44,936 nt of DNA from an uncultured Candidatus Saccharibacteria bacterium (GCA_964349945.1 CAYGIH010000002.1:1-44936), one strand, 5' to 3'; counted from the stretch's first letter, positions 2,220-44,341 are shown. A program made the numbers and translations. The notes: a model not told the origin generated them from the sequence alone.

Positions 2220-2295
2220 CTGCAACACCAAAACACCAAAAATGGGGATATTATGGGGATAAAATTGACATAAAATTCAAGAAATTGATCATTTT

Positions 2296-2304
2296 TGCTA
2301 TAAT
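2296..2304 (+). promoter_or_regulatory. Extended -10 promoter (TGcTATAAT) placed for a leaderless transcript of the 2311 gene
   Basis: TG is at 2296-2297 and TATAAT at 2299-2304. Only 6 nt (cgacca) precede the ATG at 2311, and there is no SD. Confidence 0.45.
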
Positions 2305-2310
2305 CGACCA

Positions 2311-7523: not shown

Positions 7524-7671
7524 ATATGTCTTTTATAAACTGTCCTTTAATACTACCATATTTTGTCCTTTATTGCAAGTGTCTAAAGTATAGGACATTA
7601 AGGACATAAAATGCAATACCAAAATCCACAGTTTGTGTTGTGATATGATTATTATTAAGTGTTATACACAT

Positions 7672-9837
7672 ATGGCTAAAAAACGTAAATCAGATAAGGG
7701 TGATTCTGAAGGATCATTGTTAAATCATATTTCTAAAGAAACATTTAATGCTGTACTTGGGGTACTTTCTATTGTTATTACCATATTCCTTTTTATGGCC
7801 GCTTTTGATAAAGGTGGGCCAGTGGGCAATTTCACATATATTGGCTTAACCTTTCTCTTTGGTATAGGTTATTACCTTGTCCCCATTGCATTTCTTATGT
7901 TGGGTATTTCTTTTTTCCAAGCACGAGAAAAAAATTTCGCTCTTCCCCAAACATTGGGCACAATTCTGTTTTTTATTGCCTCACTTGGCTTAACTGACTT
8001 ACTCTTTGTTAGAGGTGGACTCATAGGAGGGTTTATATCGAGACCGTTGCATTCGCTTTTTGATGTTTATCTCTCCGCTATTATTTTAGTAGCACTTATA
8101 GTCATTTCTATCCTTATCACCTTTGACACATCTATTAAAATTAATTTCCTTGCGCTCTTCTATAAAATTTTTAAGAAGAAAGATCCCCAAATAGAAATGG
8201 CACAAGCTGAGAATGCTAAGGTTGACAAGGCTGTTGAAGAGATGAAAAAAGAAGAGAAAGAACAAAAACCAAAAGAAGCTCAAGGAGCCTTGAAAAAATT
8301 ATTAAACCAAGATGACAGCGAAGGCTTTGCCCCCACAGTAACCAAACGTCTTGGACGAGCTTGGACTCCTCCCCCACTTTCACTTCTTGATAGAGACAGA
8401 GGTAAACCAGGAGTTGGAGATATAAAAGCAAATGCAAACCAAATAAAAAGAACTCTTCAAAACTTTGGCATCATCGTTGAGATGGACGAAATTTCTATTG
8501 GACCATCTGTTACCCGCTATGCTCTTAAACCTGCCGAAGGTGTAAAACTTTCTAAAATTCTCGGACTCCAAAACAATCTTGAGCTCGCTCTCGCTGCCCA
8601 CCCTGTTCGTATTGAAGCCCCAATCCCAGGAAAATCTCTTGTGGGTATAGAAGTGCCTAATACATCTAAAGCGACTATTGGCCTGGGTTCCCTACTCTCT
8701 GAACCAGGATATGCGGAATCAGATAAACCACTCTTAGTTGCTCTTGGTCGTGATGTCTCTGGAGAAACACATTTCGCTAACATGGGCAAAATGCCTCATT
8801 GCCTAGTTGCTGGTGCTACTGGTTCAGGTAAATCTGTAACCATCCATGCGATAGTTAATTCACTCCTCTTCCGTAACCCTCCAGAGAATCTAAAATTCAT
8901 AATGATTGATCCAAAGCGTGTTGAACTCACCCTCTATAACAAAATCCCCCATCTCCTCACTCCAGTTATCACTGATGCTAAAAAAGCTATTCTAGCTCTT
9001 AAATGGTCAGCCAAGGAAATGGAACGTAGATACGACATCCTTGAAAGAAATTCTGTAAGGGATATTGATTCGTATCACAAAGCCATACTTGCTGGTACTA
9101 CCAAGAAGATGAAAGATGAAGAAGATGGACCAGACCCTATGCCGTTTATAGTTATTATCATTGATGAGTTGGCTGACCTTATGTCCGCATATCCAAGAGA
9201 ACTTGAGTCAGCAATTGTTCGATTGGCTCAGATGTCTCGCGCCGTGGGTATTCACCTTATACTCTCTACCCAACGTCCATCTGTAAATGTCATCACTGGC
9301 CTTATCAAAGCCAACATACCTGCACGTATAGCTCTCCAAGTTTCCTCTCAAATTGACTCGCGTACGATTATAGACATGGCAGGAGCCGAAAAACTACTTG
9401 GTGCTGGAGATATGCTCTACGCTGGTGGAGAAATGAGTAAACCAGAACGCATCCAATCTGCATTTATTTCTGAATCAGAGGTAAAAAAGGTTGTTAAATA
9501 CCTTGTAGATACTTATATAGATGATTTGGGCACTCAAATAGATTTTACTAATGATAAAGCAGACACTTCTATTTTCTCTGCATCTCTCGATGATGATAAC
9601 CTTGGTGATGATGACGATGAATTATATGAAGAAGCCAGAGAAATAGTGGTCAGTGCGGGTAAGGCGTCCACTTCATATCTCCAACGAAAACTTCGAATTG
9701 GTTATGCTCGCGCAGCTCGACTCATCGATATACTTGAAGAACGAGGGGTGGTTGGACCAGGTTCAGGAGCTAAACCTCGAGATGTTATTGGCACCACAAA
9801 CAATTCTGCAGAGTTCGCTGAAGAAGAGATCTTATGA
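7672..9837 (+). CDS. ftsK: DNA translocase FtsK/SpoIIIE
   Basis: N-terminal TM helices are followed by the Walker A motif GATGSGKS, then IIIDELADLM, then a C-terminal gamma wHTH (STSYLQRKLRIGYARAARLID). I chose the ATG at 7672 (MAKKRKS); the ORF is open from 7633. Confidence 0.9.
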   Translation: MAKKRKSDKGDSEGSLLNHISKETFNAVLGVLSIVITIFLFMAAFDKGGPVGNFTYIGLTFLFGIGYYLVPIAFLMLGISFFQAREKNFALPQTLGTILFFIASLGLTDLLFVRGGLIGGFISRPLHSLFDVYLSAIILVALIVISILITFDTSIKINFLALFYKIFKKKDPQIEMAQAENAKVDKAVEEMKKEEKEQKPKEAQGALKKLLNQDDSEGFAPTVTKRLGRAWTPPPLSLLDRDRGKPGVGDIKANANQIKRTLQNFGIIVEMDEISIGPSVTRYALKPAEGVKLSKILGLQNNLELALAAHPVRIEAPIPGKSLVGIEVPNTSKATIGLGSLLSEPGYAESDKPLLVALGRDVSGETHFANMGKMPHCLVAGATGSGKSVTIHAIVNSLLFRNPPENLKFIMIDPKRVELTLYNKIPHLLTPVITDAKKAILALKWSAKEMERRYDILERNSVRDIDSYHKAILAGTTKKMKDEEDGPDPMPFIVIIIDELADLMSAYPRELESAIVRLAQMSRAVGIHLILSTQRPSVNVITGLIKANIPARIALQVSSQIDSRTIIDMAGAEKLLGAGDMLYAGGEMSKPERIQSAFISESEVKKVVKYLVDTYIDDLGTQIDFTNDKADTSIFSASLDDDNLGDDDDELYEEAREIVVSAGKASTSYLQRKLRIGYARAARLIDILEERGVVGPGSGAKPRDVIGTTNNSAEFAEEEIL

Positions 9838-21393: not shown

Positions 21394-21930
21394 CTATGAA
21401 AGCTGGCTGGCTTCGAGGCCGTGGTTTATGGCTTTGATCAGGTCTTTGGTTTCTAGATTCAAATCTGTTTTATTCAAATATCCGAGGTGAAAGAGAATGG
21501 TGGCCACAAATTTAGTTTCAAATTCTTTTATATCCTCTACCCCATCCTTCACCGCTTCTTTCACTAACTTTTCCAACGCATCAAATAATTCTCCATGCGG
21601 AGTTTCTCCTTGAACCATTCTTTCTAAAAGGGCGAGTGCTTGCGAGATGGCTTTCAAAAGTTTCCTATTATCACTTAATTTTATAGAAATATTTTCATCC
21701 ACTGATGAACTCGTGATTCTCCAAAATTCCTTACCCTTCACAAACGAAACAGTAGAAAGAGAGATGGGTTCGAGCGAACCACGGAGTTTGGAATGTTCCT
21801 TGCGCACGCCCTGAGCACTGGCTCTTATTAACCCAAGTTCTTTGGTCAAAAGTGAATACAACCTATCTGCCTCTCTATAAGGCTGTGAGGAAAGCACAAG
21901 AGCAGGGGTCGTATGAATGGTATAAGACAT
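21394..21930 (-). CDS. recO: DNA repair protein RecO (short form)
   Basis: The N-terminal OB-fold pattern reads TPALVLSSQPYREADRLYSLLTKELGLIRASAQGVRK. The ORF is 178 aa and lacks an obvious Zn-finger region. Confidence 0.75.
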   Translation of the reverse strand: MSYTIHTTPALVLSSQPYREADRLYSLLTKELGLIRASAQGVRKEHSKLRGSLEPISLSTVSFVKGKEFWRITSSSVDENISIKLSDNRKLLKAISQALALLERMVQGETPHGELFDALEKLVKEAVKDGVEDIKEFETKFVATILFHLGYLNKTDLNLETKDLIKAINHGLEASQLS

Positions 21931-24900
21931 TAGAATTCAATATTTGTAGCCGAAGTAATCTCTTTCCTAAACTTCTCAAATAAATCTTTTTCTTCTGATT
22001 TAACTTCATAAGGCATCACATCACTAGGTTTCAAATTCTTTTCTTTCCTTAAATCTTGGATAACTCGAATGACATCTCGCATCCTACCTTCTTCAGCGAG
22101 CTCTGGAGTGATGATTGTATCAATTTCTACCCCTTCTATCTCTTTGTCTATTACCTCCTTCACGTTCACTTCGTCCTTAATCAAATCTACATAAACATCT
22201 TTTGTAGAAGTAGTGAGCGAAGCGATAGGTTGCCTGATTTTTATATTTGCTTTTGAACGAGCTTCAAGAGCGACAGAAACTTTTTGCCTGGTAGCTTCCA
22301 TTTTCTTTATTATTTCTTCGTCTACATTTGTATCAGCAGTTGGCCAGCTTTCTAGGTGCACACTTTCTACATCATTTTCAATGCGGAGTTTTCTATAAAG
22401 CTCTTCTGCAATAAATGGTGCAAATGGGGCTAGGAGTTTAGTGATGTTTTTCAACACAAAATACAAAGTCTGCTTGGCTTCCTTATCCCCTTCTTTAATC
22501 CTCTCCCTTGAACGACGGAGATACCAAGTAGAAAGATCGTCCACAAAATCTCTAAAGCTCCTAGTTGGTTCAATTAAATTATAAACATCGAGTTTTTCAG
22601 TCATGATGCTTGTGAGTTCATTGAATCTGGTGAGAATCCATTTATCCAAAATATTTTCTGATTTTGGTGAATCATTATTCTCTAAACTCTTATCTCTAAA
22701 CAAATCATAGAAAGAATATATGTTGTCGAGCATGTTGAATACTCGTTTATTCACTTCATCAACTGTCTTATCATCATAATTCTTCGGATCTCCTGGTTGA
22801 TTAATCGAATACATCCAAAATCTCACCGCATCAGCTCCGTGCTTCTCCATCGCTTCCATAGGATCAACAACATTGCCGGTAGTCTTACTCATCTTCTTAC
22901 CATCTTTGTCCAAAAGTAATCCAAGACAAATGACATTTTTATAAGCTGCTCCCTTACCCATCAGTACTCCGAGTGCGTGCATGGTGTAGAACCACCCTCT
23001 GGTTTGGTCTAAGGCTTCAGATATAAAGTCTGCTGGATACATAATGTTTGAGAAATCCCCAGCTTTCTCTCTGTCATCAGAGTCTTGGGAGAAAGGCATC
23101 GAACCAGAATCAAACCACACATCCATCACCTCCTTCACTCGTCTGTATTCCCTACCATCCTTCTCTAGCACCACTTCATCTATAAATGGTTTATGTAAAT
23201 CTAGAGCGAAATCCTTATCATGTGGCAGTGGGGAGAAATCCAATGGACGCACTTCAGCATTTTTAAATCTTTGGAAATCATTCACAAAATCTTTACCTTC
23301 CGAAAGTGAATATTTTTTATTATCTGGCATATGTAAACCAGAAACTACATAAAGAAGCCATGCTGGGCCACCATGAGTCACAATCAAAATGTTTTTACCT
23401 TTGTATTTATTTTCTAAATCATAAATAAAAGAACCCATTCTTCGTCTAACATCGGCGAGTGATTCACCATTAGGCATTGTCACATTGAACCAATCTGGTC
23501 CTGCTGCATACATAGTTTTGTGATATTCATTCCAATCACCACCATCAAACTTCCCTGGATTTATTTCTATAATTCTGTCATCTAAAGCTACTTCGACACC
23601 CAAAACCTTACCAACTATTTCTGCGGTTTCTTTAGTACGAGTGAAAGATGAAGAGATGATTAAATCAATTTTCTTATCTTTCAAATCTTCTGCGGATTTC
23701 TCCGCTTGTTTTTTGCCATCCTCAGTTATATGGTCACCCTCTTGATTCTTGAAGCTAACAATCTCATTCTTGTTTCCTTCTGTGCCTCCATGACGCATCA
23801 CAAAATATTTGTTCCCAGATTTCTTTGTATATTTTCTAATTGTATCCAAAGAATCAACAACCATTCTTTCCTTACTATCTTCTGTCTGCCAGATTGGCAG
23901 TGGTGTGCCCCAATATCTCTCTCGGCTGATAGCCCAATCCTTCACCTCTCGTAGCCATTCACCAAAACGACCTTCTTTTATATAATCCGGCTCCCAATTT
24001 ATTTTTTGATTTTCTTCAACTAATTTATCTCGAACCTCAGACATTCTTATGTACCAAGAATCTCGAGCATAATAAATGAGTCGCGTGCCGCATCTCCAAC
24101 AAAACGGATATGCGTGAGTATAATTTTCTTTATCAAAAAATAGTCCTCGACTTTGAAGTTCTTTGAGTATCTCCACAGCCAGAGTTTCATCTACCACTGA
24201 TTTTCCTTCCAACCAATCTGTACCTTTTATAAACAAACCTTCTGGAGAAACAAGATGCACTTTAGGCAAACCTATTTTAGTGCCCAAATCAAAGTCCTCC
24301 TGTCCATACATCACCGCTGTATGCACAATACCCGTCCCATCTGTAGTAGTAACAAAGTCTGCTGTGTGAACCTTAAAGGCCTTATCTAATGCCTCTTTTG
24401 GAGCGTCTACAGCCAATCCGGATACAAATGGATACAAGGGTTCATAAGCCATACCCTGCATCTCAGAGCCCTTGTGCTCTGCGATTATTTCATAAGGTTC
24501 TTTAATAATTGAAAGTCTTTCTTTGGCTAAAACATAAATCTCTTCACCCACTTTCGCTTCTACATAATCAATATCTGCTCCAACAGCAAGCGCAATGTTC
24601 CCTGGGAGAGTCCAGGGGGTAGTAGTCCACGCAAGGAAATATGCTTTTGGAAACCCGACAATTTTAAACTTCACATACAGAGAAATATCCTTCACATCTT
24701 TGTATCCTTGAGCAAGTTCGTGTGAAGAAAGTCCTGTCCCACATCTTGGGCACCAAGGGACAACTTTATAATCCTTGTATAAAAGTTTCTTCTTCTCTAC
24801 TTCAGCAAGGATTGTCCAAATAGATTCAATGTATGGATTATGGTAAGTGACATACGCGTTTTCATAATCTGCCCAATACCCCATGCGGTCACTGAACTGT

Positions 24901-25289
24901 CTCCAGAGATCTACATAAGTCCAAACGGATTTCTTGCATTCATCATTAAATTTTTCTACTCCATAACTCTCAATTTCTTTCTTGGATTTTAATCCCAATT
25001 TTTTCTCTACTTCGAGTTCGACTGGCAGTCCGTGTGTGTCCCAACCCGCCTTTCGACGCACATGAAAGCCTCGCATGGTTTTGTAGCGCGGAATAGCATC
25101 CTTGAAGGCGCGGGCCTCGACGTGGTGAATACCTGGTTTGCCGTTCGCAGTTGGAGGACCTTCATAAAACACAAATTCACCCTTGTCTGCGGGTTTCTCT
25201 AAGGTCTTTTCGAATATTTGATTGTCTTTCCAAAATTGGAGGACCTTCTCCTCCCTTTGGGAACGAGTAAGCCCTTTATCTTCAGGCAT
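21930..25289 (-). CDS. ileS: Isoleucyl-tRNA synthetase carrying an internal histidine-phosphatase-like domain
   Basis: PTANGKPGIHH (HIGH), the editing-domain motif TTPWTLPGN, WAISRERYWGTPLPIW, DVWFDSGSMP and KMSKT are all present. The ORF is 1119 aa, with an extra ~190-aa block at aa ~494-685. Confidence 0.93.
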   Translation of the reverse strand: MPEDKGLTRSQREEKVLQFWKDNQIFEKTLEKPADKGEFVFYEGPPTANGKPGIHHVEARAFKDAIPRYKTMRGFHVRRKAGWDTHGLPVELEVEKKLGLKSKKEIESYGVEKFNDECKKSVWTYVDLWRQFSDRMGYWADYENAYVTYHNPYIESIWTILAEVEKKKLLYKDYKVVPWCPRCGTGLSSHELAQGYKDVKDISLYVKFKIVGFPKAYFLAWTTTPWTLPGNIALAVGADIDYVEAKVGEEIYVLAKERLSIIKEPYEIIAEHKGSEMQGMAYEPLYPFVSGLAVDAPKEALDKAFKVHTADFVTTTDGTGIVHTAVMYGQEDFDLGTKIGLPKVHLVSPEGLFIKGTDWLEGKSVVDETLAVEILKELQSRGLFFDKENYTHAYPFCWRCGTRLIYYARDSWYIRMSEVRDKLVEENQKINWEPDYIKEGRFGEWLREVKDWAISRERYWGTPLPIWQTEDSKERMVVDSLDTIRKYTKKSGNKYFVMRHGGTEGNKNEIVSFKNQEGDHITEDGKKQAEKSAEDLKDKKIDLIISSSFTRTKETAEIVGKVLGVEVALDDRIIEINPGKFDGGDWNEYHKTMYAAGPDWFNVTMPNGESLADVRRRMGSFIYDLENKYKGKNILIVTHGGPAWLLYVVSGLHMPDNKKYSLSEGKDFVNDFQRFKNAEVRPLDFSPLPHDKDFALDLHKPFIDEVVLEKDGREYRRVKEVMDVWFDSGSMPFSQDSDDREKAGDFSNIMYPADFISEALDQTRGWFYTMHALGVLMGKGAAYKNVICLGLLLDKDGKKMSKTTGNVVDPMEAMEKHGADAVRFWMYSINQPGDPKNYDDKTVDEVNKRVFNMLDNIYSFYDLFRDKSLENNDSPKSENILDKWILTRFNELTSIMTEKLDVYNLIEPTRSFRDFVDDLSTWYLRRSRERIKEGDKEAKQTLYFVLKNITKLLAPFAPFIAEELYRKLRIENDVESVHLESWPTADTNVDEEIIKKMEATRQKVSVALEARSKANIKIRQPIASLTTSTKDVYVDLIKDEVNVKEVIDKEIEGVEIDTIITPELAEEGRMRDVIRVIQDLRKEKNLKPSDVMPYEVKSEEKDLFEKFRKEITSATNIEF
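23235..23810 (-). other. Histidine phosphatase superfamily (PGAM/SixA/CobC-like) domain nested within ileS
   Basis: The block reads KYFVMRHGGTEGN ... LIISSSFTRTKETAEIVG ... NGESLADVRRR ... ILIVTHGGPAW. This gives the RHG motif, the S-x-x-R-T-x-E-T-A motif and the distal H-G-G. It is in frame and flanked by IleRS sequence on both sides. Confidence 0.75.
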
Positions 25290-26933: not shown

Positions 26934-27027
26934 AGCAAAAAAGAAGAAAATTGCTTATTAGACAGCCTCTTAAATATGAGTAATATGAGGTCAGATTCGT
27001 CCTTTCACATCAACTAAGAGGATCCTT

Positions 27028-27930
27028 ATGGACCCCCAGTATTTGCCCTTTGCAGATCGCAAACCAGATCATCAGTATTTGAAGCTCATTCGCAGAATCT
27101 ACAATGAAGGCGAGATGGTTATTCACCCCCACCAACAAGGGATGGGGCGGAGAACCCATCTTTCCCTGCCTCCGCTTATCTACAAAATGTCTAACGGTTT
27201 CCCACTCCTCACGGAGAGAAACATTCCGTTCTGGAAAGTAGCCATCGCAGAGCTCGTCGCCTTCATGAACGGCGTCACTACCAACGAAGGCCTCCATGCA
27301 TATGGATGTGCCTGGTGGGACATGTGGACCACGAAGGAGAAGTGTGAGCTCTTCGGACTCGAAGAAGGTGACCTCGGTTGGGCGTCTTATGGTGGAGCAT
27401 ACGGGAAGTTCCCAATGCCCAACGGTGAGTCCTTCAACCAGTTCGTGCATCTCATTCAAAGCATGAAAGAATCGCCGAACTTGGCTACGCACTGCATCAC
27501 TTCATGGATCCCTTATGGAGTCCTTCAACACAGTGGGTTAAAGCGCAAGGTGGTTGTGGCTCCATGCCACGGCAACTTCCTGAAGTTCACCATCATCAAT
27601 GGGAAGTTGTCACTCCAGCATGTGCAACGCTCTGCTGATATGCCTGTTGGAGTAGTTTCCAACATCATTCAGTATGCGGCACTGCTCCTTATGGTCGCGC
27701 AAGTGATCGGCGTCGAGCCGTACGAGTATTCGCACTACTTCCTCGACGCTCAGATCTATGAGAACCAGTTTCCACAAGTCAAAGTCCTTTTGGACAGAAG
27801 CCCTCGAGCCTTCCCGACTCTCCGCATCATCGACAAGTCGGTCAAGGATATCTTGGCTTTCCGCCCGGAGCATTTTGAACTCACTGACTACAATCCAAAC
27901 CCAGGGATGAAGTTCCCCGTCACGGAGTAG
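27028..27930 (+). CDS. thyA: Thymidylate synthase (ThyA) family enzyme, divergent
   Basis: The catalytic Cys is present in VVAPCHG, along with QRSADMPVGVVSNI (Arg/Asp/Asn triad region), AIAELVAF, WWDMW and DAQIY. The SD AAGAGGA lies upstream. GC is higher than in the flanks. Confidence 0.8.
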   Translation: MDPQYLPFADRKPDHQYLKLIRRIYNEGEMVIHPHQQGMGRRTHLSLPPLIYKMSNGFPLLTERNIPFWKVAIAELVAFMNGVTTNEGLHAYGCAWWDMWTTKEKCELFGLEEGDLGWASYGGAYGKFPMPNGESFNQFVHLIQSMKESPNLATHCITSWIPYGVLQHSGLKRKVVVAPCHGNFLKFTIINGKLSLQHVQRSADMPVGVVSNIIQYAALLLMVAQVIGVEPYEYSHYFLDAQIYENQFPQVKVLLDRSPRAFPTLRIIDKSVKDILAFRPEHFELTDYNPNPGMKFPVTE

Positions 27931-27935
27931 TGCCC

Positions 27936-28871
27936 ATGCTCAAGATCATCGTTGCAGTAGCAACGAATGGGGTGATCGGACGGGGTGACAAACTGCCGTT
28001 CAATCTCCCCGCTGACCGCCGCAAATTCAAGGACATAACACTTGGCCATCCAGTGGTCATGGGCTCGAATACCTTTCGGTCCCTCCCAAAGCAGTTTCGG
28101 CCGCTTCCTGGTCGAGAGAATATTGTGCTCTCCAGAAACCCGAATGCACAGATGGATAACGTGACACACGTACTCTGGTGGAAGGAAATTCTCCATCGAG
28201 CAGAAACTGAGGACATGTTCGTCATCGGCGGATCGAGGGTATACGAACTCGCTCTCGACCATTCTGATGAACTTTTTATCACTCGCGTTCACGCTGAAGT
28301 CGAAGGTGACACCTTCTTTCCTGAGCTCGACATGAGCGACTGGAAACTTCTCTCGAGCGAAGAACATGCTCAAGATGAAGAGAATGAGTTTGCCTTCACT
28401 TGGGAAGTGTATGAGAGGATTCCACGAATCTCTCCGCATAACCCATTCATCGAGATGCGCAATTGTCGCACAGACGAACAACGCAGGGCAATGAAAGAAA
28501 TCCTCGATGCTGGAGTTTGCCCGTTTTGTGCAAGTAATTTCCACAGATGGCACAAAAAGCCGCTTTTGTGGTCCGGAGACCACTGGTTTGTCAGCGAGAA
28601 CATGTGGCCATACCCCGGCTCCAAGATTCATCTGGTGGCTTTCCTGAAGTATCATGCGGAAGGTCCAGAGGACATGTCAGTCGCTGAATTTGGAGAGCTC
28701 CACACCATTCTCGTCTGGGCAATGAAAGAATACGGCATCAAGGGTGGTGGTCTCTACATGCGCTTCGGTGAATGCCTGTGGACTGGTGGTACTGTACGCC
28801 ACATCCACGCACACATCGCCGCGAAGGCCGAGCTCGGCGGTGAGGCAATTAAGTTTTACCTCGGCAGTTGA
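27936..28871 (+). CDS. folA: Dihydrofolate reductase fused to a C-terminal HIT (histidine triad) domain
   Basis: The DHFR part reads IIVAVATNGVIGRGDKLPFNLPADRRKFK...PLPGRENIVLSR...VIGGSRVYE. The HIT part reads CPFC...HLVAFLKYH...GGTVRHIHAHIAA (H-x-H-x-H at 28800-28814). A GGAG SD lies 8 nt before the ATG at 27936. A GTG at 27930 overlapping the thyA stop is an alternative start. Confidence 0.8.
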   Translation: MLKIIVAVATNGVIGRGDKLPFNLPADRRKFKDITLGHPVVMGSNTFRSLPKQFRPLPGRENIVLSRNPNAQMDNVTHVLWWKEILHRAETEDMFVIGGSRVYELALDHSDELFITRVHAEVEGDTFFPELDMSDWKLLSSEEHAQDEENEFAFTWEVYERIPRISPHNPFIEMRNCRTDEQRRAMKEILDAGVCPFCASNFHRWHKKPLLWSGDHWFVSENMWPYPGSKIHLVAFLKYHAEGPEDMSVAEFGELHTILVWAMKEYGIKGGGLYMRFGECLWTGGTVRHIHAHIAAKAELGGEAIKFYLGS

Positions 28872-28876
28872 TGTTG

Positions 28877-28906
28877 AAGCCCGCACCTTATAGGTCGGGC
28901 TTTTTT
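28877..28906 (+). terminator. Rho-independent terminator of the thyA-folA::HIT operon
   Basis: The stem AAGCCCG...CGGGCTT is followed by a T-run. Confidence 0.7.
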
Positions 28907-28911
28907 AATAA

Positions 28912-28948
28912 TAAAAAAAACCTCGTTCTGTTAGACAGAAACGAGGTT
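28912..28948 (-). terminator. Rho-independent terminator of the cytidylyltransferase-deaminase operon
   Basis: On the minus strand a long stem, AACCTCGTT(T)CTGT-cta-ACAGAACGAGGTT, is followed by T8. The 5' arm of the stem overlaps the stop codon. Confidence 0.75.
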
Positions 28949-29794
28949 GTCCTTCACTTGAATGAGCTTCACTCCATGAGTCTTGAAAACTTCCTGTGCA
29001 TTCAGAGATGAAAATCCTTCAGAGAAATACACCGTGTGTACTCCACTGGCTGAGATTTCTCTGGCACACATCTCACAAGGGAAAGTGGTCACATACAGCG
29101 TCGCCCCTTCGAGCGCATGGCCGTATCTGGCACACTTGATGATGACTGACTGCTCTGCGTGAATCACGCAGGACTTACCCATCTGCCCTGCATCGCGATT
29201 GATGCTTGGATCACCAAAGATGTATGTCTCGTACTCATTCGGCATATGAGTATTGCATGCGGTGGCCAACACCTTCCCGTCTCGACTGATAGCCGCAGCG
29301 GCCACACGTCTCCACCAATCTGGACTCCGACCAGAGAACTTCTTCAGCTCACTGAGAAACTCAACATCGAACTGGTCAGTGGAAATTTCCACATGAGGAA
29401 TGACTGGTTGATTCTGTAGAATTGCCGTCATATCCCAACGCGCCCAGATCATCTCATAGGCCACATTGCACTCAGCTGGCAGTAAGTATTTCTCTGCCAA
29501 AAGATGTGAAATATCTTCGTCTGGAAGAATGATGCATTCTTCCGCATGAGGTGAGCTGTCCAAACCTGGGAACAAAGGATTGAAGATTCTCACCTTTCTA
29601 ACCAAGTTCAGAGAACTGATCATGCGAAGCATGGTCACGGCCGGCAAACCGGCCATGTTGCGAGCGAGCCGAGGCAGTAAATCATATGCATCCTTCTCTG
29701 ACACGAGCAAAAGGGTGCAATCCGAATACTTCGACAACCAATCGATGTGGCGTTGGTTCAGCGTCGGGATATACGCAATGAGGTTCTGGGTCAT
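28931..29794 (-). CDS. Two-domain protein: unknown N-terminal ~135-aa domain plus C-terminal dCMP/CMP-type zinc deaminase
   Basis: The C-terminal half carries the deaminase signature CVIHAEQSVI ... TFPCEMCA. I recognise no motif in the N-terminal half (IAYIPTLNQRHIDWLSKYSDCTLLLVSE...), including no P-loop. The start overlaps the upstream gene's stop (ATGA), with GGAG upstream. Confidence 0.8.
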   Translation of the reverse strand: MTQNLIAYIPTLNQRHIDWLSKYSDCTLLLVSEKDAYDLLPRLARNMAGLPAVTMLRMISSLNLVRKVRIFNPLFPGLDSSPHAEECIILPDEDISHLLAEKYLLPAECNVAYEMIWARWDMTAILQNQPVIPHVEISTDQFDVEFLSELKKFSGRSPDWWRRVAAAAISRDGKVLATACNTHMPNEYETYIFGDPSINRDAGQMGKSCVIHAEQSVIIKCARYGHALEGATLYVTTFPCEMCAREISASGVHTVYFSEGFSSLNAQEVFKTHGVKLIQVKDNLVSV

Positions 29795-30399
29795 TTTTGC
29801 TCCAGACCCAAATGCCTGTCCACGACTTCCTTAACAGCGACAGCCAAGTCCTTGGCCAAACTCTCAGCTCCCTCTCTCTGAAGGCGTTGCATCTTGGCTG
29901 AAGTACTGATGCTCTCAGGTGGAGCTTGGGGATCAAGATGTTCAATCCGACCACAGAACTCATCCAAGATTGCCTTGTCCTTGTCTGTGAATGAGCTCGT
30001 CGTCTTGGACATCACGAGTACATCCGGCTTCACTAACCTGATGAGGTCGTACATGTGCTGGTCCACATCTCGCCGAGTGATAATCTTCACAAACGAAAGC
30101 ATCGACAGGAGTTCAATACGTTCATTGAACCCATCGAATGGACGAGTCGGGCCCTTCATTTGACGCGTCAGCTCGTCGGAGTCAACCCCAACGATGAGGA
30201 TATCTCCGAACTGCGAGGCTTCCTGCAGGTAGCGACCATGTCCAACATGGAACATGTCGTAAACACCTTGTGTGAGTACAATCTTGTAACCAGATTCACG
30301 CAATAGTCGAACCATCACTTCAAGATCATTGAAGTCGGGGATGTACTTCCCGTGCAAACCACTACTGCCTTCCAAAACACCCTTGAGATTTGGTGTCAC
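29791..30399 (-). CDS. Cytidylyltransferase-like (HxGH nucleotidyltransferase; RfaE-II/TagD/RibL-like) protein
   Basis: IVLTQGVYDMFHVGHGRYLQEASQFGDILIVGVDSDELTRQMKGPTRP provides the HxGH motif, and a distal ISTSAKMQR motif is present. The GTG start is preceded by GGAGG. Confidence 0.75.
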   Translation of the reverse strand: MTPNLKGVLEGSSGLHGKYIPDFNDLEVMVRLLRESGYKIVLTQGVYDMFHVGHGRYLQEASQFGDILIVGVDSDELTRQMKGPTRPFDGFNERIELLSMLSFVKIITRRDVDQHMYDLIRLVKPDVLVMSKTTSSFTDKDKAILDEFCGRIEHLDPQAPPESISTSAKMQRLQREGAESLAKDLAVAVKEVVDRHLGLEQK

Positions 30400-30460
30400 A
30401 AAGCCTCCGTGAAAGTATTTACAAGGACCAAAGTCTGTTCTTACTTTACTTGCTCATAAG

Positions 30461-30490
30461 AAAAACAAAAGCTCCATAAATGGAGCTTTT
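30461..30490. terminator. Bidirectional hairpin terminator downstream of the 30513-31133 gene
   Basis: The stem AAAGCTCCA-taaa-TGGAGCTTT is flanked by A-rich and T-rich runs. Confidence 0.65.
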
Positions 30491-30512
30491 GTGTTCAAAT
30501 TTTTAACTTTTT

Positions 30513-31133
30513 TTAACGAAGAAAATCAAAGAAAGACCAAAACGAAGAACTCTTGGATGCCGTCGCAGTAAGACCAGACGAAGCCACCACTGGTGGTGTA
30601 TATGTGACAACTGCAGATATTCTACTTAACCTCACACCCTTGGTTCCTCCACTATAAACAACCCCAATTTCTAGGTTTGTTGTTGAGCCTTTAGGGATAT
30701 TCAATCCAGAAAAAGAATACGTGGGTAAATCAGACGGCATTGTACCTCTTAATTCATAACTAGTTGAATCCTCGCTATCTACCCCATCTACTCTATAAAA
30801 AACCTTCATTTCTGAATTAGCCTTACCACTCGAGCTCTTTGAAGCACATGGTGTGATATCAATTTTTGTAATTTGGGAACCGTTTGGTACATAATAAGTA
30901 GCTCCTATTCGAAATGAATCACGGCTGTTTAATGTGGTCGTACTATCATAAGTCCTTGTACCATCACACGAATAAGTTTCCGTTACTTGTTGATACTGAA
31001 TCTTTCCATACCTTGGTATCCATTGTCTATAAAATCCATCAGCCTCTGGTAGTAATACTGGGGTCGTATCCGCAAACACTGGTAAAGCTATAAATAATAG
31101 AGGAACCACAAACATCAATATATTTTTTCTCAT
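30513..31133 (-). CDS. Secreted hypothetical protein (low GC, native-looking composition)
   Basis: The ORF is 206 aa with a signal peptide (MRKNILMFVVPLLFIALPVFA). I recognise no motif. Confidence 0.6.
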   Translation of the reverse strand: MRKNILMFVVPLLFIALPVFADTTPVLLPEADGFYRQWIPRYGKIQYQQVTETYSCDGTRTYDSTTTLNSRDSFRIGATYYVPNGSQITKIDITPCASKSSSGKANSEMKVFYRVDGVDSEDSTSYELRGTMPSDLPTYSFSGLNIPKGSTTNLEIGVVYSGGTKGVRLSRISAVVTYTPPVVASSGLTATASKSSSFWSFFDFLR

Positions 31134-31173
31134 AGTTAAAACATACTCCCATGAATACAGATGTCAACAATAA

Positions 31174-31197
31174 TAAAAAAGCCCCTCTTATAGGGCT
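31174..31197 (-). terminator. Rho-independent terminator of the ParB/Srx-like gene
   Basis: On the minus strand the stem AGCCC/GGGCT is followed by a T-run. It overlaps the stop codon. Confidence 0.55.
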
Positions 31198-31861
31198 ATC
31201 CATCGATGCCAACTCTCTCGAGTTGGCGGAAAAGGTCTGGATGAAGATCAAAATATCTTTTTTCACGAGGGGGTTTTTCCTCGACAACCACAACCTTCTC
31301 CCACATCTGCGGAGTGCAAGGAAACGGCACCTTCACCCCGCTCACGATAATCGTCTCAAGAGTAGTGCCAACCCGCATCACTAAAAAGTTGCGATGCATT
31401 CCATCGAGAAGGATTTTTCTTTCTCCTTGTTCAACTATTGGTGGAAGGTAATGGGCGAGAGCAAGTGTCCCATCTACTAGTTCACCGTACACGATGAGAG
31501 CTGTGCACTTGGCTACACCCTTCGTAGTACAAAAACCGTCGAAGAAAGTTGAGAACATCTCAATGAGTGATTGATATTTCTTCCTTTCCACGAAGGTCTG
31601 CCCCACAAGAAGAATCGATGGATCAATTCTCGCGGTGGTAATAATAGCCCCCTCGTATGGCCTTATGTTACTGTCTCCAGCCAGAGTAACACTAGAAAGA
31701 ATTTGCTTGAGATACTCCATAGGCATGACCCTAATTTCCCTCACCCGAATGAGCTCGCGAAGGGAAACCACTAATCTAACCTTATCCCACCCACTGAAAA
31801 AATCCTCATGCCTCATGCCGGTGTTGTGCTCAAACTCCTCAAGATCAAGTCTTTTTAGCAT
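31196..31861 (-). CDS. ParB/sulfiredoxin-fold (DGxHR motif) domain protein, function unknown
   Basis: HYLPPIVEQGERKILLDGMHRNFLVMRVG resembles the ParB-like nuclease/Srx core (PPI-V...DG-HR). GC is higher than in the flanks. A GGAG SD precedes the ATG at 31861; the ORF is open to a TTG at 31879. Confidence 0.6.
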   Translation of the reverse strand: MLKRLDLEEFEHNTGMRHEDFFSGWDKVRLVVSLRELIRVREIRVMPMEYLKQILSSVTLAGDSNIRPYEGAIITTARIDPSILLVGQTFVERKKYQSLIEMFSTFFDGFCTTKGVAKCTALIVYGELVDGTLALAHYLPPIVEQGERKILLDGMHRNFLVMRVGTTLETIIVSGVKVPFPCTPQMWEKVVVVEEKPPREKRYFDLHPDLFRQLERVGIDG

Positions 31862-31907
31862 TGTGGCTCCACTCGTCAAAGGACTATCTCTCCAAAGGGT
31901 AACAAAC

Positions 31908-31916
31908 TGCTATAAT
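31908..31916 (+). promoter_or_regulatory. Extended -10 promoter (TGcTATAAT) placed for a leaderless transcript of the 31924 gene
   Basis: TG is at 31908-31909 and TATAAT at 31911-31916. Seven nt precede the ATG at 31924 and there is no SD. Confidence 0.45.
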
Positions 31917-31923
31917 ACTAGCA

Positions 31924-32466
31924 ATGAAAATTGGACTAGATTTTGATGGGGTAATTTCTGACTGCCTGGAGATGAAATCCAGATTTGCCAAGGAAATGTA
32001 TGGGGTGGATATTCCTCCTTATGATTTTAAAAAAGAAATTGTTTTTGAAAGAAAACTATTAACACCTGAAGAGTACAGAAACCTTCAATTAAAGATTTAT
32101 GAGGATGAAGAAATTGGCTTAACGATAAATGAAGTTATGGGGGCAATAGATGGGATTAAGAATTTAATGAAAGACCATAATGTGGTTGTGGTAACTTCTA
32201 GGGGTGATAGTTCGGTAAAGATAGCAAGAAAATGGTTAAACAAAAGAGGTGTAGATCTTCCTTTTATTTCAGTTCAATACGGGATGGATAAAATGGTGGC
32301 TAAAGATTGTGATGTGTTTATAGATGACGACCTAGTAAAACTAGTACCACTATCTGGACATGTACCTAAACTTTTTTTATTTTCCTGGCCATATAACCAA
32401 GAAGATTCACACCCATCCATTACTAGAGTAGCCAGCTGGAAAGATTTCTTAGATAAAATTGAATAA
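31924..32466 (+). CDS. HAD-superfamily phosphatase, 5'(3')-deoxyribonucleotidase-like
   Basis: The N-terminal HAD motif I reads MKIGLDFDGVISDC. VVVVTSR (motif II-like) and FIDDD (motif IV-like) are also present. The ORF is 180 aa. Confidence 0.65.
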   Translation: MKIGLDFDGVISDCLEMKSRFAKEMYGVDIPPYDFKKEIVFERKLLTPEEYRNLQLKIYEDEEIGLTINEVMGAIDGIKNLMKDHNVVVVTSRGDSSVKIARKWLNKRGVDLPFISVQYGMDKMVAKDCDVFIDDDLVKLVPLSGHVPKLFLFSWPYNQEDSHPSITRVASWKDFLDKIE

Positions 32467-32496
32467 AAAAACCGAATCAAGAAGATTCGGTTTTTT
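32465..32496. terminator. Bidirectional terminator between the HAD gene and rplK
   Basis: The sequence reads an A-run, ACCGAATC, aagaa, GATTCGGT, T6. Confidence 0.75.
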
Positions 32497-32500
32497 AGGT

Positions 32501-41020: not shown

Positions 41021-42085
41021 ATGGCGCACAGAAAACCAACAGTCTTAGATTTATTTAGCGGTTGCGGGGGCCTCTCAAGAGGCTTTATGGACGCAGGCTA
41101 TCACATCCTTCTCGGTGTTGATAATAACGACTCTGCTCTTGAAACTTTCAAGTTAAACCACAATGGAGCTGATGCAATTAACTTGGATCTTTCAGATAAA
41201 AAAAGTATTGGAATAATTAAAAAAATTCTTGGAAGCAACCAACCAGACATTATTGTAGGAGGTCCTCCCTGCCAAGGTTTCTCACTCACTGGGCCAAGAA
41301 ACTTTGACGACAAGAGAAACAAGCTTTACTTGGCAATGATTGAAACTGTTAAAGAATTTAAGCCTAAGGCTTTTCTAATTGAGAATGTGCCTGGACTTGC
41401 TCGTCTATATGAAGGAAAAGTTAAAGACGAAATAATAAAAAGATTTACAAGGCTTGGTTATAACGTCAATATGCAAATTATATGTACAGCAGATTACGGT
41501 GTGCCTCAAATTAGGCGCAGAGTAGTTTTTATAGGTATTAAAAAAACTCTTGGTAAGTTTGAGTTTCCAAAGCCAATACTATCCCCCACTAATTATCTGA
41601 CTTGTGAGGATGCAATTGGAGACCTTCCTAGTAGAGTAGATGATTTTGGAAATGAAATTGATAAATATAGTCATTCTCCTAAATCTAATTATCAGAAAAA
41701 GATGAGGGACAATGGAGATATTTTATTAAATCATGTGGCTAGTCGTCATACGGACCTTGTGAAATCAATAATTGCTCAGGTCCCCGAAGGTGGAAACTAT
41801 AAGAACCTACCAAAAGGGGTTGGGGATAACCGAAAATTCAATGAAGCATGGACTAGGTATCACAGCAAAAAACCATCTAGAACCATTGATACCGGCCACA
41901 GAAACCATTTCCACTATAAATACAACAGGATTCCGACTGTGAGGGAAAATGCCAGACTCCAATCCTTTCCTGATAGTTTTCGGTTTGTCGGGACACGTAC
42001 TGAACAAAATCGACAGGTAGGAAATGCCGTGCCTCCACTACTGGGTTATTATATTGGTAGAGAGATTCTTAAATACATTAAATAA
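41021..42085 (+). CDS. DNA (cytosine-5)-methyltransferase 1
   Basis: All C5-MTase motifs are present: LDLFSGCGGLSRGF (I), GGPPCQGFS (IV), ENVPGL (VI), QIRRRVVFIG (VIII), RENARLQSFPDSF (IX) and GNAVPPLL (X). Confidence 0.95.
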   Translation: MAHRKPTVLDLFSGCGGLSRGFMDAGYHILLGVDNNDSALETFKLNHNGADAINLDLSDKKSIGIIKKILGSNQPDIIVGGPPCQGFSLTGPRNFDDKRNKLYLAMIETVKEFKPKAFLIENVPGLARLYEGKVKDEIIKRFTRLGYNVNMQIICTADYGVPQIRRRVVFIGIKKTLGKFEFPKPILSPTNYLTCEDAIGDLPSRVDDFGNEIDKYSHSPKSNYQKKMRDNGDILLNHVASRHTDLVKSIIAQVPEGGNYKNLPKGVGDNRKFNEAWTRYHSKKPSRTIDTGHRNHFHYKYNRIPTVRENARLQSFPDSFRFVGTRTEQNRQVGNAVPPLLGYYIGREILKYIK

Positions 42086-43380
42086 TGAAGAGAAACAAGT
42101 CTCAAAAATTAAGAACAATTGATTTGTTCGCAGGCTGTGGAGGTCTAACTGAAGGATTTGAAATGTCTGGTGCTTTTTCCACTATCGGGATAGTTGAATG
42201 GGAGAAATCAGCCCTGAAAACATTGGTTCATAGAATGAAAACAAAGTGGAAAAAAGATGATGCTGAATCATCCTCACTTCTTTTTGATATGCAGAGAACT
42301 AATGACCTATTAGAAGGTTGGACTGAAGATAAAAAATATGGGACTCATGAAGGGTTAAGGAAACTTGTAAAAAAAAGTGGTAAGGCAGTTGATGTCATCG
42401 TTGGTGGTCCGCCATGTCAGGCTTATTCAATAGCAGGAAGAGTACGAGATCAAGACGGAATGAAGAATGATTATCGCAACTACCTTTTTGAAACATATCT
42501 TAAGGTAGTAAGGGAATTTCAACCAAAAGCATTTGTATTTGAAAATGTATTGGGCCTATTAAGTGCTAACCCAGAAGGTATCCCAATCCCAGAACTTATA
42601 AGAAATGCTTTTAAAGAAATTGGTTATGAAATAATCAGCGATCTTCATGAAGCGATAGTTGATGCATCAGAGTTCGGGATACCACAAGTCAGAAAAAGAC
42701 TGGTGATAATAGGATTAAGGAAAAACGCTTTTGAGGATGACTCTCAGGATATTTTGTTAGATTTCTATAATAATATTCTTCCGACTTATAAAACAAAGAT
42801 GAAAACTGTTGCAGATGCTATTTCGGATTTACCAAAAATGAAGGTTTCAAAAAAGATGAACGTTTCCCATGAAGTAGTAGGAGAAAATACGGCCTTAAAT
42901 CACAACCCGAGATACCACAATCCAAGAGATGTTGAAATATTTGAAGAACTAGCCACTGACTTAACAAGAAAGAGTAGGAAATATAAAACGATTGATGACT
43001 TGAAAAAATTGTATACTGAAAAAACAGGTAAGACATCCAGTATTCATAAATATTATGTATTGGAGTCTGATAAGCCTAGTAATACAATTGTAGCTCATCT
43101 CCACAAGGACGGATTGAGGCATATACATCCTGATCCAAAACAGGCCCGATCAATAACTGTAAGAGAAGCTGCGCGACTACAAACCTTTCCCGATGACTTT
43201 GAGTTTTTAGGTAGTATGGGAGATCAATACAAAATGATAGGAAATGCAGTGCCTCCGTTGTTGGCCAAGGCTGTTGCCTTGTCACTTAAGGCAGTACTGG
43301 AGAAATATCTGGCATCCGATATACTGAATACCAATGAGTCAGCAATTACTGAAATTCGACGAATCAGCGTATATACATAA
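42085..43380 (+). CDS. DNA (cytosine-5)-methyltransferase 2
   Basis: IDLFAGCGGLTEGF, GGPPCQAYS, ENVLGL, QVRKRLVIIG, REAARLQTFPDDF and GNAVPPLL are present. The start overlaps the MTase 1 stop (TAATG). The target-recognition region is long. Confidence 0.95.
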   Translation: MKRNKSQKLRTIDLFAGCGGLTEGFEMSGAFSTIGIVEWEKSALKTLVHRMKTKWKKDDAESSSLLFDMQRTNDLLEGWTEDKKYGTHEGLRKLVKKSGKAVDVIVGGPPCQAYSIAGRVRDQDGMKNDYRNYLFETYLKVVREFQPKAFVFENVLGLLSANPEGIPIPELIRNAFKEIGYEIISDLHEAIVDASEFGIPQVRKRLVIIGLRKNAFEDDSQDILLDFYNNILPTYKTKMKTVADAISDLPKMKVSKKMNVSHEVVGENTALNHNPRYHNPRDVEIFEELATDLTRKSRKYKTIDDLKKLYTEKTGKTSSIHKYYVLESDKPSNTIVAHLHKDGLRHIHPDPKQARSITVREAARLQTFPDDFEFLGSMGDQYKMIGNAVPPLLAKAVALSLKAVLEKYLASDILNTNESAITEIRRISVYT

Positions 43381-44341
43381 GCTAAATGCCCAGGAGTTGG
43401 GCTATAGAAACGGCAAACCTGGTGGTGCTGGTCGGTATTTTTATATTTCCAAGTCCTGTGTCGAATACTTTCCTCCTCTGAGCGAGGTGGAACTCAATGA
43501 TCACGTAATTTTAGACTTAATACCTCCCCATAACGACGAGGTGGTTCTCACAAATTATGTTTTTCACAATAGTAAGTACGCAACTCCGGTAAAGACCGAG
43601 GATAGGGACGAGTACCGAATATACTTAAATAGTAGAAATGATCCTGGCCGCGATTACTTTAAGCCAGAGGACATTATCGTAATACTAAAAATGTATAACG
43701 ATGAAGATCTTTTGTATAAAGTCCTTCATACCAAGCCCGATAGTCAGGATTATAAAAAACTAGAAGGATTATTTGATAGTTCTGGTCGAAATAAGACCCA
43801 TGCTCTAGTCCCTCTAAGTTCTCTAACTTTTCTCGAAGCATTAAGAAAAATAAAAGTTGGGGTCAAGATTATTCCCCAGGAAATAATTGACGAAGCACTT
43901 GAAGAGCCTGTATATCATGAACCAGTAAGAGAAGAACAGGTCACTCAGGTAATCAGAAGTAAATCATTCCGCGATCTTGTTTTGTATTTTTACAATTATA
44001 GTTGTGCGATTACTGACAAGACATTTTTTATTGATCATAAGGATTTCAACAATCTCGAAGCTGCACATTTAAGAGCAAGAGCTGCGGGTGGCGGAGGTAA
44101 TCCTTCTAATGGTATTGCACTTGAGCGAAACCTGCATTGGTCTTTTGATAAGGGTTTTTTTACAATCACTAATGATTACAAAGTCGAGGTTCATCCAGAA
44201 GCAATGAAAATACCTTACTTAAAGGAAAAACACGGACAAAGCATCACGGTTCCAGAAGATAGTCGTGCTAGACCAGATAAAGATTCTCTAAGATGGCACA
44301 GAGAAAATGTCTACGGTATCTTTTTGAAAACAGAATCGTAG
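43334..44341 (+). CDS. Putative restriction endonuclease: EcoRII-N/B3-like DNA-binding domain plus C-terminal HNH (HNH_2-type) nuclease
   Basis: The N-terminus YIHKLNAQELGYRNGKPGGAGRYFYISKSCVEYFPPLS...EYRIYLNS...PEDIIVILKM parallels EcoRII-N YIKRLSANDTGATGGHQVGLYIPSGIVEKLFPSIN (recalled from memory). The C-terminus reads CAITDKTFFIDHKDFNNLEAAHLRARAAGG..NPSNGIALERNLHWSFDKGFFTI (HNH). It overlaps the end of MTase 2 by 47 nt. Confidence 0.75.
   Translation: MSQQLLKFDESAYIHKLNAQELGYRNGKPGGAGRYFYISKSCVEYFPPLSEVELNDHVILDLIPPHNDEVVLTNYVFHNSKYATPVKTEDRDEYRIYLNSRNDPGRDYFKPEDIIVILKMYNDEDLLYKVLHTKPDSQDYKKLEGLFDSSGRNKTHALVPLSSLTFLEALRKIKVGVKIIPQEIIDEALEEPVYHEPVREEQVTQVIRSKSFRDLVLYFYNYSCAITDKTFFIDHKDFNNLEAAHLRARAAGGGGNPSNGIALERNLHWSFDKGFFTITNDYKVEVHPEAMKIPYLKEKHGQSITVPEDSRARPDKDSLRWHRENVYGIFLKTES

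Follow-up and report, generated by a model that had tools for sequence, protein, structure and literature searches.

Is the GC-rich block of genes at positions 27028-30399 of GCA_964349945.1 CAYGIH010000002.1:1-44936 an acquired element, or does it belong to the chromosome in which it lies? The stretch analysed here (the window) comprises 44,936 nt of a single strand, with coordinates counted from its first letter. An initial annotation had proposed that a foreign pyrimidine-deoxynucleotide module was wedged in at this place, with a ParB-like gene further along as one of its members. We find that the block is the core cassette for thymidylate synthesis in Parcubacteria (Paceibacteria), located at its usual chromosomal position and organized as two convergent operons. 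Real features had been seen, and an ancestral cassette was misread as a foreign element, with the ParB-like gene taken for a part of it. The whole explanation, which we consider likely, combines a housekeeping cassette, an accessory pair of proteins within it, in-place replacement of cassette genes, and a separate insertion alongside.

The compositional contrast itself is real. In 1-kb windows, GC is 0.33-0.41 before 27000 and 0.50-0.515 over 27001-30000, confirming the jump reported at ~27000. The block (3.37 kb) has a GC of 0.505, corresponding to z=5.4 against the rest of the window, for which 166 equal-sized windows elsewhere served as background (23S rRNA left out; mean 0.382, sd 0.023, maximum 0.418). 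The edges of the block are sharp in 200-nt bins (~27000 and ~30400). The shift is mostly synonymous: GC at third codon positions (GC3) is 0.645 in thyA and 0.573, 0.559, and 0.562 in the other three block genes, and ranges from 0.22 to 0.42 (mean 0.310, sd 0.043) in the 36 other genes of the window. GC at second positions (GC2) is unremarkable. With its deviant composition (GC3 of 0.56-0.65 vs 0.31), the block thus shows one of the marks by which genomic islands are recognized.

Gene order in relatives speaks to its origin. One genome per GTDB species was scanned for the fused deaminase encoded in the block, which gave 142 relatives, and 80 loci were kept. Neighbours were counted over these 80 (L001 and L002, which duplicate the contig of the window itself, were taken out); with the window added, the set comprises 81 loci. 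Because loci were picked for the presence of the fused deaminase, all co-occurrence frequencies are conditional on that gene and cover only cassette-bearing Parcubacteria, a point that weighs against our interpretation. Among the 80 loci, a cytidylyltransferase-like (CT-like) gene neighbours the deaminase in 77, a thymidylate synthase gene (ThyA) in 77, and a HIT-family gene in 76. The arrangement is the same in 77/81 loci: a unit reading from the CT-like gene into the fused deaminase is convergent with a unit reading from thyA, through a dihydrofolate reductase (DHFR) gene where there is one, into the HIT gene. DHFR alone changes place. The CT-like stop and the deaminase start are separated by a median of -4 nt, and by <=5 nt in 72/78 loci.

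The flanks recur as well, with rplK upstream in 56 of the 80 loci, nusG upstream in 53, and argS downstream in 40. The usual site of the cassette lies between nusG-rplK and argS-ileS, also in the nearest relative (L003), where the cassette is likewise high in GC3. Clustering of open reading frames (ORFs) revealed further neighbours, namely GlyA (28 loci), Dut (18), and FolD (11). Identity between the window and L003 at 4-fold sites is 0.37-0.58 in the cassette and 0.48-0.66 in the flanks. Given this similar synonymous divergence, the cassette has been co-inherited since the two split and was already GC-rich in their common ancestor.

A recently acquired island, from a phage or an unrelated bacterium, would explain why GC and GC3 lie far beyond the range of the genome and why the trees of cassette genes conflict with those of the flanking genes. 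It is contradicted by the conserved genes, order, and position, and by the presence in L003 of a cassette that has diverged synonymously as its flanks have. Moreover, wherever a homologue of the CT-like protein or of the fused deaminase bears a source name, it is from Patescibacteria/Parcubacteria (Minisyncoccia, Zambryskibacteria, and others) or carries a generic label. No tRNA, integrase, or flanking repeat was found, the repeat search giving short matches at chance level. Viral sequences offer little: a scan of IMG/VR gave one contig with the fused deaminase, and no deaminase match among INPHARED phages reaches over the N-terminal domain. We consider a recent foreign origin very unlikely, and the wedged-in module of the initial annotation does not hold.

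Phage origin as such was rejected, since the sole IMG/VR contig with the CT-like/deaminase pair has neither ThyA nor HIT and the PHROGs matched are generic enzyme families. That contig (UViG_3300037483_001116, 158 kb; L091) carries the pair at 7492-8810, and neither ThyA nor HIT is encoded within 8 kb of it. The contig could be cellular and misclassified, or the pair could, in rare cases, occur by itself.

What does the cassette do? The plus-strand operon begins with thyA (27028-27930), encoding a thymidylate synthase of 300 aa (PF00303, 7.5e-58, over residues 15-298) that scores above the TIGR03284 cut-off (151.2 bits vs 108.35). Cys180 (PCH), Arg201-Ser202-x-Asp204, and Asn212 are present in the window and in 77-78/78 relatives, and residue 212, at the position of pyrimidine specificity, is Asn (not Asp), the dUMP type. 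The second gene is a folA::HIT fusion (27936-28871, plus strand; 311 aa from the ATG, the ORF having been called from a GTG at 27930). Its residues 1-163 form the DHFR (PF00186, 8.7e-52, profile positions 1-159 of 159), which falls below the NCBIfam type-3 equivalog cut-off (133 vs 168 bits). As the thyA stop (27930) and the ATG of this gene (27936) are coupled, we infer that ThyA yields dTMP and dihydrofolate.

The last ~150 residues of the fusion constitute the HIT region. Taken alone, this region of the window has no Pfam match even at E≤10, and phmmer against PDB was also empty. The HIT call of the initial annotation is borne out at the family level: a profile of 28 relatives matches PDB 3oj7 (E=3.9e-9), and 26/28 relatives match PF01230. 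A CxxC motif (C45, C48), H90, H139, and H141 are conserved or invariant, the third histidine of the motif being H, Q, or N; the window has HIHAHI. In 74 loci, HIT stands alone as a protein of 125-175 aa, and the fusion to DHFR occurs only in the window, L003, L007, and L054.

The minus-strand operon encodes a CT-like nucleotidyltransferase and the fused deaminase, whose genes overlap by 4 nt, in keeping with the translational coupling that had been proposed. The deaminase (28931-29794; 287 aa) consists of an N-terminal domain (aa 1-140) and a dCMP-type deaminase domain (aa ~145-287; PF00383, 7.9e-17). H212 and E214 (HAE) and C240 and C243 (PCxxC) are present in 81/81 sequences. A full-length model matched the dCMP deaminases 2w4l, 1vq2, and 4p9c in Foldseek (E ~1e-10), a result dominated by the deaminase domain. 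The ComEB equivalog (TIGR02571) was not reached, at 56.3 bits with a cut-off of 219.45. By these scores, the protein is best assigned to a distinct two-domain subfamily, apart from the ComEB equivalog.

Between the two operons, the spacer at 28872-28930 contains back-to-back terminator-like hairpins, which we read directly from the sequence and which an automatic scan did not list. On the plus strand the stem is formed by GAAGCCCG...CGGGCTTTTTT, and on the minus strand by AACCTCGTT...AACGAGGTT followed by a T run. The initial annotation had given each transcription unit its own terminator, and hairpins do lie between the convergent operons, after the secreted-protein gene described below, and after the ParB gene; it is the first of these that the automatic scan missed. 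The hairpins at 28886-28910 (after DHFR::HIT) and 31171-31195 (after the ParB gene) are 80% complementary over 25 nt and are of the same type in opposite orientation, which may be chance.

Deaminases of this kind convert a cytosine deoxynucleotide to its uracil form, ThyA converts dUMP to dTMP with production of dihydrofolate, and DHFR regenerates tetrahydrofolate. By this established enzymology, the cassette is predicted to lead from a cytosine deoxynucleotide via dUMP to dTMP with folate recycling. GlyA, FolD, and Dut, encoded near the cassette in relatives, would complete the folate/thymidylate cycle on the same grounds. The dCMP to dUMP to dTMP logic of the initial annotation holds with the residues intact, and Pfam agrees with its naming of ThyA, DHFR, dCMP deaminase, CTP_transf_like, and NT5C genes and, at a score below the gathering threshold, of the ParB-like gene.

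In phage modification systems, enzymes of the thymidylate synthase family are found together with deaminases and ParB-like proteins, and on this ground the block could be taken for a DNA base-hypermodification module, in which a hydroxymethylase of the thymidylate synthase family would act with a DndB/DpdB-like ParB protein. The ThyA encoded here argues otherwise: its score is above the equivalog cut-off for thymidylate synthase, residue 212 is the dUMP-specific Asn, and its gene is coupled to that of DHFR, an enzyme required only when dihydrofolate is made. There are no kinase, glycosyltransferase, or dnd/dpd genes nearby, and the ParB-like gene lies beside the cassette in no other genome. 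Such a module, one of the options first proposed, seems extremely improbable.

The same holds for a role in manipulating the nucleotide pool for defence or counter-defence, for instance by an anti-phage dCTP deaminase of the AvcD type that depletes dCTP. The fused protein does show local likeness to NF041025 (1.5e-20, residues 210-272) and to the PADLOC dCTPase model (3e-23). The former match is confined to the zinc-motif core and scores 73.5 bits against a cut-off of 400, and there was no further PADLOC match of note. AvcD-type enzymes have a kinase-like N-terminal domain; the N-domain here is predicted to have a cytidylyltransferase fold instead. The gene is universal rather than sporadic in defence islands, and its syntenic partners are ThyA, DHFR, GlyA, and Dut, next to genes for ribosomal proteins and tRNA synthetases. 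We therefore give a defence function hardly any credence, and found no evidence in support of either defence or base-modification roles.

The N-domain required structural modelling. By sequence, it matches nothing in Pfam (E≤10), and its profile gave only chance matches against PDB sequences (secretagogin, E=0.12). When the domain was modelled separately (pLDDT, the predicted local distance difference test score, of 83), the top Foldseek matches were all cytidylyltransferase-fold enzymes: TagD 2b7l (E=9e-4), HldC, the Fom1 CyTase, 3glv, 1coz, and PPAT. HxGH is lacking, with LNxRH or LHxGY in its place. The domain is therefore best called a degenerate member of the cytidylyltransferase fold, as judged from the model. 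Two results weigh against this assignment, namely Foldseek TM-scores of just 0.5-0.6 and a weak hhalign match between the N-domain and the CT-like family (E=0.049, probability 1%). A search of 1.84 billion representative proteins with the N-domain profile gave 478 matches. Among the 150 matches listed, most are full-length proteins of 270-310 aa, the shorter ones are probably fragments, and no other domain is attached to the N-domain.

The CT-like gene (29791-30399, minus strand) encodes a protein of 202 aa (PF01467, 1.5e-11; RfaE domain II, 3e-26), whose sequence matches in PDB are ECT 3elb (top), HldC 5x9q, and TagD. HxGH (H51, G53, H54) is present in 77-78/78 sequences and the ISTS-like Thr166 in 76/78. 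A further count puts the gene directly beside that of the deaminase in 79/80 species loci. By its residues the enzyme appears to be catalytically intact, and it looks like a paralogue of the N-domain of the deaminase.

How might these additional proteins serve thymidylate synthesis? Cytidylyltransferase-fold enzymes are dimeric, and in ECT a single chain combines an active copy of the fold with a degenerate one. Enzymes of the class cut the alpha-beta bond of (d)CTP or another NTP and free pyrophosphate, and HIT enzymes free the NMP from NMP-X compounds. Because the fold is dimeric and ECT pairs an active with a degenerate domain, the active CT-like protein would probably dock, by analogy, on the degenerate domain of the deaminase. 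Together, the CT-like and HIT proteins would take deoxynucleotides of cytosine or uracil down from triphosphates to monophosphates, as needed by the deaminase and ThyA. We offer such a supply function tentatively, as a possibility that we hold with more doubt than confidence. The main alternative for these accessory proteins is a regulatory role in sensing (d)CTP.

A more specific scheme would join the chemistry to the history of the locus: a carrier receives the (d)CMP moiety of (d)CTP, the moiety is deaminated there and released by HIT as dUMP for ThyA, and the cassette is swapped at a fixed site. In this joint form the proposal is unlikely. If true, the carrier route would stand in for the Dcd/Dut or dCTP-pyrophosphatase steps throughout Parcubacteria, and the five-gene cassette would be an exchangeable unit, swapped repeatedly among lineages at a fixed chromosomal site.

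Several points count against the proposed chemistry. The nucleotide, the acceptor, and the physical complex of the CT-like protein, N-domain, and HIT are inferred. The distance-matrix correlation between the CT-like protein and the N-domain is 0.43, the same as for other pairs, and thus singles out no interaction. Finally, a two-enzyme route where one pyrophosphatase could do is not parsimonious.

Alternatively, the CT-like and HIT proteins could be unconnected with thymidylate synthesis, acting for example on an NDP-activated envelope precursor, and be neighbours by history alone. The closest characterized relatives of the CT-like protein make CDP-alcohols or ADP-heptose, and sources label it RfaE domain II or TagD. 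A separate role is harder to reconcile with the close spacing of the CT-like and deaminase genes, with the degenerate domain of the same fold that the deaminase bears (nothing else having been found attached to that domain), and with the position of HIT beside ThyA in nearly all loci and its fusion to DHFR in four genomes. The adjacency also persists although single genes appear to have been replaced. Because the overlap is conserved and the fusions are present, we think an envelope-precursor role improbable, if by no means negligibly so.

Why, then, is the composition of an ancestral cassette so different from that of its surroundings? Two candidate causes were rejected. Amino-acid conservation does not fit a shift that lies at third positions and spares NusG and L11, two highly conserved proteins. 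Pathway-wide codon selection does not fit the adjacent Dut, GlyA, and FolD genes, which have native GC3; the shift therefore belongs to the five-gene cassette, not to the pathway.

The shift recurs in relatives in a manner that depends on the host. In most low-GC relatives, the cassette exceeds the flanks in GC by 3-17 points, and regression of cassette GC3 on flank GC3 over 65 loci has a slope of 0.46. Where flank GC3 is <0.40, cassette GC3 is higher in 24/24 loci (0.45 vs 0.32); where flank GC3 is >=0.55 (24 loci), it is lower on average (0.59 vs 0.64). Gene trees conflict, too. For NusG+L11, the window lies nearer to L066 than to any of L006, L009, and L031 (P=1.000, 1,000 bootstraps); for CT+Deam, that ordering receives P=0.000 and is reversed. 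Loci L025 and L029 have near-identical flanks (0.06) and CT-like proteins that differ at 68% of sites. Between L060 and L074, ThyA differs at 14% of sites and ArgS/IleS at 57%, a clear example of thyA passing from one lineage of Parcubacteria to another. L060 belongs to Adlerbacteria and L074 to Kaiserbacteria; their ThyA proteins are 86% identical, and their ArgRS/IleRS ~43%.

Because the GC3 shift is limited to the cassette, recurs in low-GC genomes, and reverses in high-GC genomes, and because gene trees conflict, we favour repeated in-place replacement by relatives' versions of other GC, adjusted incompletely to the host, as the somewhat more probable cause. Against this stand three observations: the evidence for gene swaps consists of p-distances, many of them near saturation; the L066 deaminase is a long branch (nearest relative 0.57); and the window, L003, and L007 hold high GC at 4-fold sites (GC4) despite substantial synonymous divergence. 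Codon-usage selection or GC-biased gene conversion could hold GC3 near 0.5.

If such selection, or conversion at a recombination hot spot, had maintained the shift without import, the higher cassette GC3 in all 24 low-GC relatives would be expected, as would a high GC4 in the window, L003, and L007 at a 4-fold identity of just 0.31-0.58. The ParB-like gene discussed below also has raised GC3 in several genomes. High-GC genomes are at odds with maintenance of this kind, since the cassette on average lies below its flanks there and GC-biased conversion alone does not predict this, and the mid-range goes both ways. So are the unshifted pathway neighbours and the clear gene-tree conflicts. We judge maintenance in place to be rather unlikely, and retain in-place replacement as the preferred cause.

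Beside the cassette, positions 30509-32498 constitute a separate, lineage-specific insertion of 1,990 bp with three genes. It is absent from the nearest relative, in which the flanking sequences are almost contiguous in blastn (L003 3232-3684 matches window 32950-32499, and L003 3686-3954 matches window 30508-30239). None of the three genes occurs in any of the 80 related loci. Absence from a close relative is likewise a mark of islands, and there are no mobility genes. A terminator hairpin on the minus strand (30465-30492), which in L003 (3699-3732) follows rplK, here follows the secreted-protein gene.

The first gene of the insertion (30513-31133, minus strand) lies outside the cassette and encodes a protein of 206 aa with an N-terminal signal-like peptide; it has no match in Pfam, NCBIfam, PHROGs, or PADLOC. 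The second (31196-31861, minus strand) encodes a ParB-CE-like protein of 221 aa from its ATG, with an LLDGxHRNF motif (PF24392, 3e-4). At 21.2 bits, it is under the 23-bit gathering score of PF24392, which 21/28 relatives match (best 7e-7). In the ParB-CE family (45 clusters, ~220 aa), LLDGxHRNF is invariant and no DNA-binding domain was detected. No solved structure in PDB was matched by sequence, and IMG/VR and INPHARED scans found no member. In the literature, we found no description under the name 'ParB-CE', the matches being mostly to fluorescent ParB fusions. The third gene (31924-32466, plus strand) encodes an NT5C-family HAD 5'(3')-deoxyribonucleotidase-like protein of 180 aa (PF06941, 1.9e-8; phrog_420, 4.5e-16).

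The initial annotation had called the ParB-like gene an orphan and a member of the cassette module. It is neither: ParB-CE and NT5C form a conserved divergent pair in 6/7 contexts (the window, L083/84, L085/86, L087, L089, and L090; the exception is L088), and the gene lies beside the cassette in this genome alone. A spacer of 62 bp separates the two genes in the window, L083/84, L087, and L089; in L090 it measures 44 bp. The surroundings of the pair have nothing else in common (ThrRS/DnaE, HisRS/MreB beside a Cas12a locus, BipA, and NIF3/PNP), so the two genes form a unit of their own, which moves as such. No dnd/dpd genes lie beside ParB-CE in the seven contexts. In L085, a 102-kb metagenomic contig, a Cas12a (Cpf1)-Cas4-Cas1-Cas2 locus (1-3658) lies ~2.3 kb upstream of the pair.

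GC3 in the insertion is native-looking for the secreted-protein gene (0.27) and NT5C (0.28), which confirms the low GC first reported for both; ParB-CE alone is raised (0.48). Compared with its neighbours, ParB-CE has a GC3 of 0.48 vs 0.31 in the window, 0.75 vs 0.36-0.51 in L083 (6001-6663), and 0.66 vs 0.27-0.41 in L087 (6001-6669). The GC3 of its NT5C partner is native.

ParB-CTPase-fold proteins without a DNA-binding domain (SerK, SbnI, Srx) are ATP-using enzymes (PMC12704722). By analogy, it is plausible that ParB-CE has a nucleotide-dependent enzymatic or switch role coupled to the deoxynucleotidase. The pair would thus be one more candidate for an enzymatic use of this fold.

For its proposal of an undescribed module, the initial annotation had named as contrary evidence ordinary core synteny in close relatives, with each protein in a canonical clade and no conserved co-occurrence of the nucleotidyltransferase and ParB-like genes. 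Core synteny is what we observe, and ParB does not co-occur; the nucleotidyltransferase does (77/80 loci), and the proteins are not plainly canonical.

By its gene content, the window is ordinary chromosome. Its genes run 23S rRNA, FtsK, RecA, EF-P, SSB, S6, TatD, MetRS, RecO, IleRS, ArgRS, the block, rplK, nusG, secE, and MurB, and the 23S rRNA (1-1806) accounts for the raised GC at the window start. IleRS (21930-25289, minus strand; 1119 aa) has a histidine-phosphatase domain (PF00300, His_Phos_1) inserted inside the synthetase; in relatives IleRS is comparably long (~1110-1220 aa), and the L018 sequence has the same insert. Two large predicted surface proteins are encoded on the minus strand (3057-4409 and 4632-6557), one with Lamin-tail and PKD domains and the other, whose GC2 is unusually high (0.53), with a peptidoglycan-binding domain. 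Near the other end, a tandem of two C-5 cytosine DNA methyltransferases of the Dcm type (41021-42085 and 42085-43380, plus strand; PF00145, 8.5e-70 and 5e-63) is followed by a 335-aa ORF (43334-44341), and the locus is possibly a restriction-modification system.

Parcubacteria are tiny and host-dependent and have largely lost nucleotide biosynthesis (PMC11974145). The cassette indicates what they retain, namely a path from cytosine deoxynucleotides to thymidylate with folate recycling. It also has two near-universal members that stand out: a nucleotidyltransferase apparently paired with a degenerate copy on the deaminase, and a divergent HIT protein that goes with ThyA and DHFR. Once the chemistry of these two is understood, a new step in deoxypyrimidine metabolism, or a new point of its control, could come to light. 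For annotation, the locus is a warning that GC3 of an 'island-like' kind may belong to a housekeeping cluster that is ancestral and syntenic. Here it is the cassette that is shifted, and the actual insertion next to it that is mostly native in GC3; what is ancestral in the region is its GC-rich part.

Compared with known systems, the ParB-CE protein resembles SerK, SbnI, and sulfiredoxin in being small and single-domain, with a DGxHR-type motif and no DNA-binding domain detected. It differs from them in matching no solved structure and in its apparently conserved partner, the NT5C nucleotidase. Like the AvcD-type dCTP deaminases, the fused protein has two domains with the deaminase at the C-terminus, and around the zinc core the sequences are locally similar; it differs in the predicted fold of its N-domain, its housekeeping, syntenic distribution, and scores far under the cut-off. 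With dCMP deaminases (ComEB, human DCTD, T4 Cd, and the cyanophage S-TIM5 dCD), it has in common the invariant HAE and PCxxC and a structural match at E ~1e-10. Unlike them, it carries a 140-residue degenerate N-domain and scores far under the ComEB cut-off, and its substrate may be at the dCMP or dCTP level.

Both the sequence of the CT-like enzyme and the fold of the N-domain find their best matches in ECT (3elb) and the dimeric TagD/HldC. By analogy, the cassette may mimic across two chains the pairing of an active with a degenerate copy that ECT has in one. Here, the copies lie on two proteins, one of them fused to the deaminase. As members of the HIT superfamily (Hint hydrolases, GalT-type transferases), the cassette HIT proteins have CxxC, a conserved His, and HxHxH, and their profile matches a PDB HIT structure; the third His, varying as H/Q/N, recalls the GalT branch. 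The family is nevertheless divergent, as the window sequence alone misses the Pfam HIT family and an invariant RFG replaces the usual N-G-x-x-x-G-Q. Its genomic tie to ThyA and DHFR has no described precedent that we found in our searches.

The closest parallels to the cassette as a whole are thyA-folA clusters and the td/frd/cd genes of phage T4, in which, as here, ThyA and DHFR are adjacent and translationally coupled and a dCMP-type deaminase supplies dUMP; in relatives, SHMT, FolD, and Dut are also near. In our literature search, we found no description of a Parcubacteria-wide cassette with an active CT-like enzyme, of a fusion of a degenerate fold to a deaminase, or of a HIT protein linked to ThyA/DHFR. 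The thymidylate cycle is textbook. What is new relative to the thyA-folA and T4 clusters is the near-universal CT-like enzyme and HIT protein, and a deaminase with an extra N-terminal domain.

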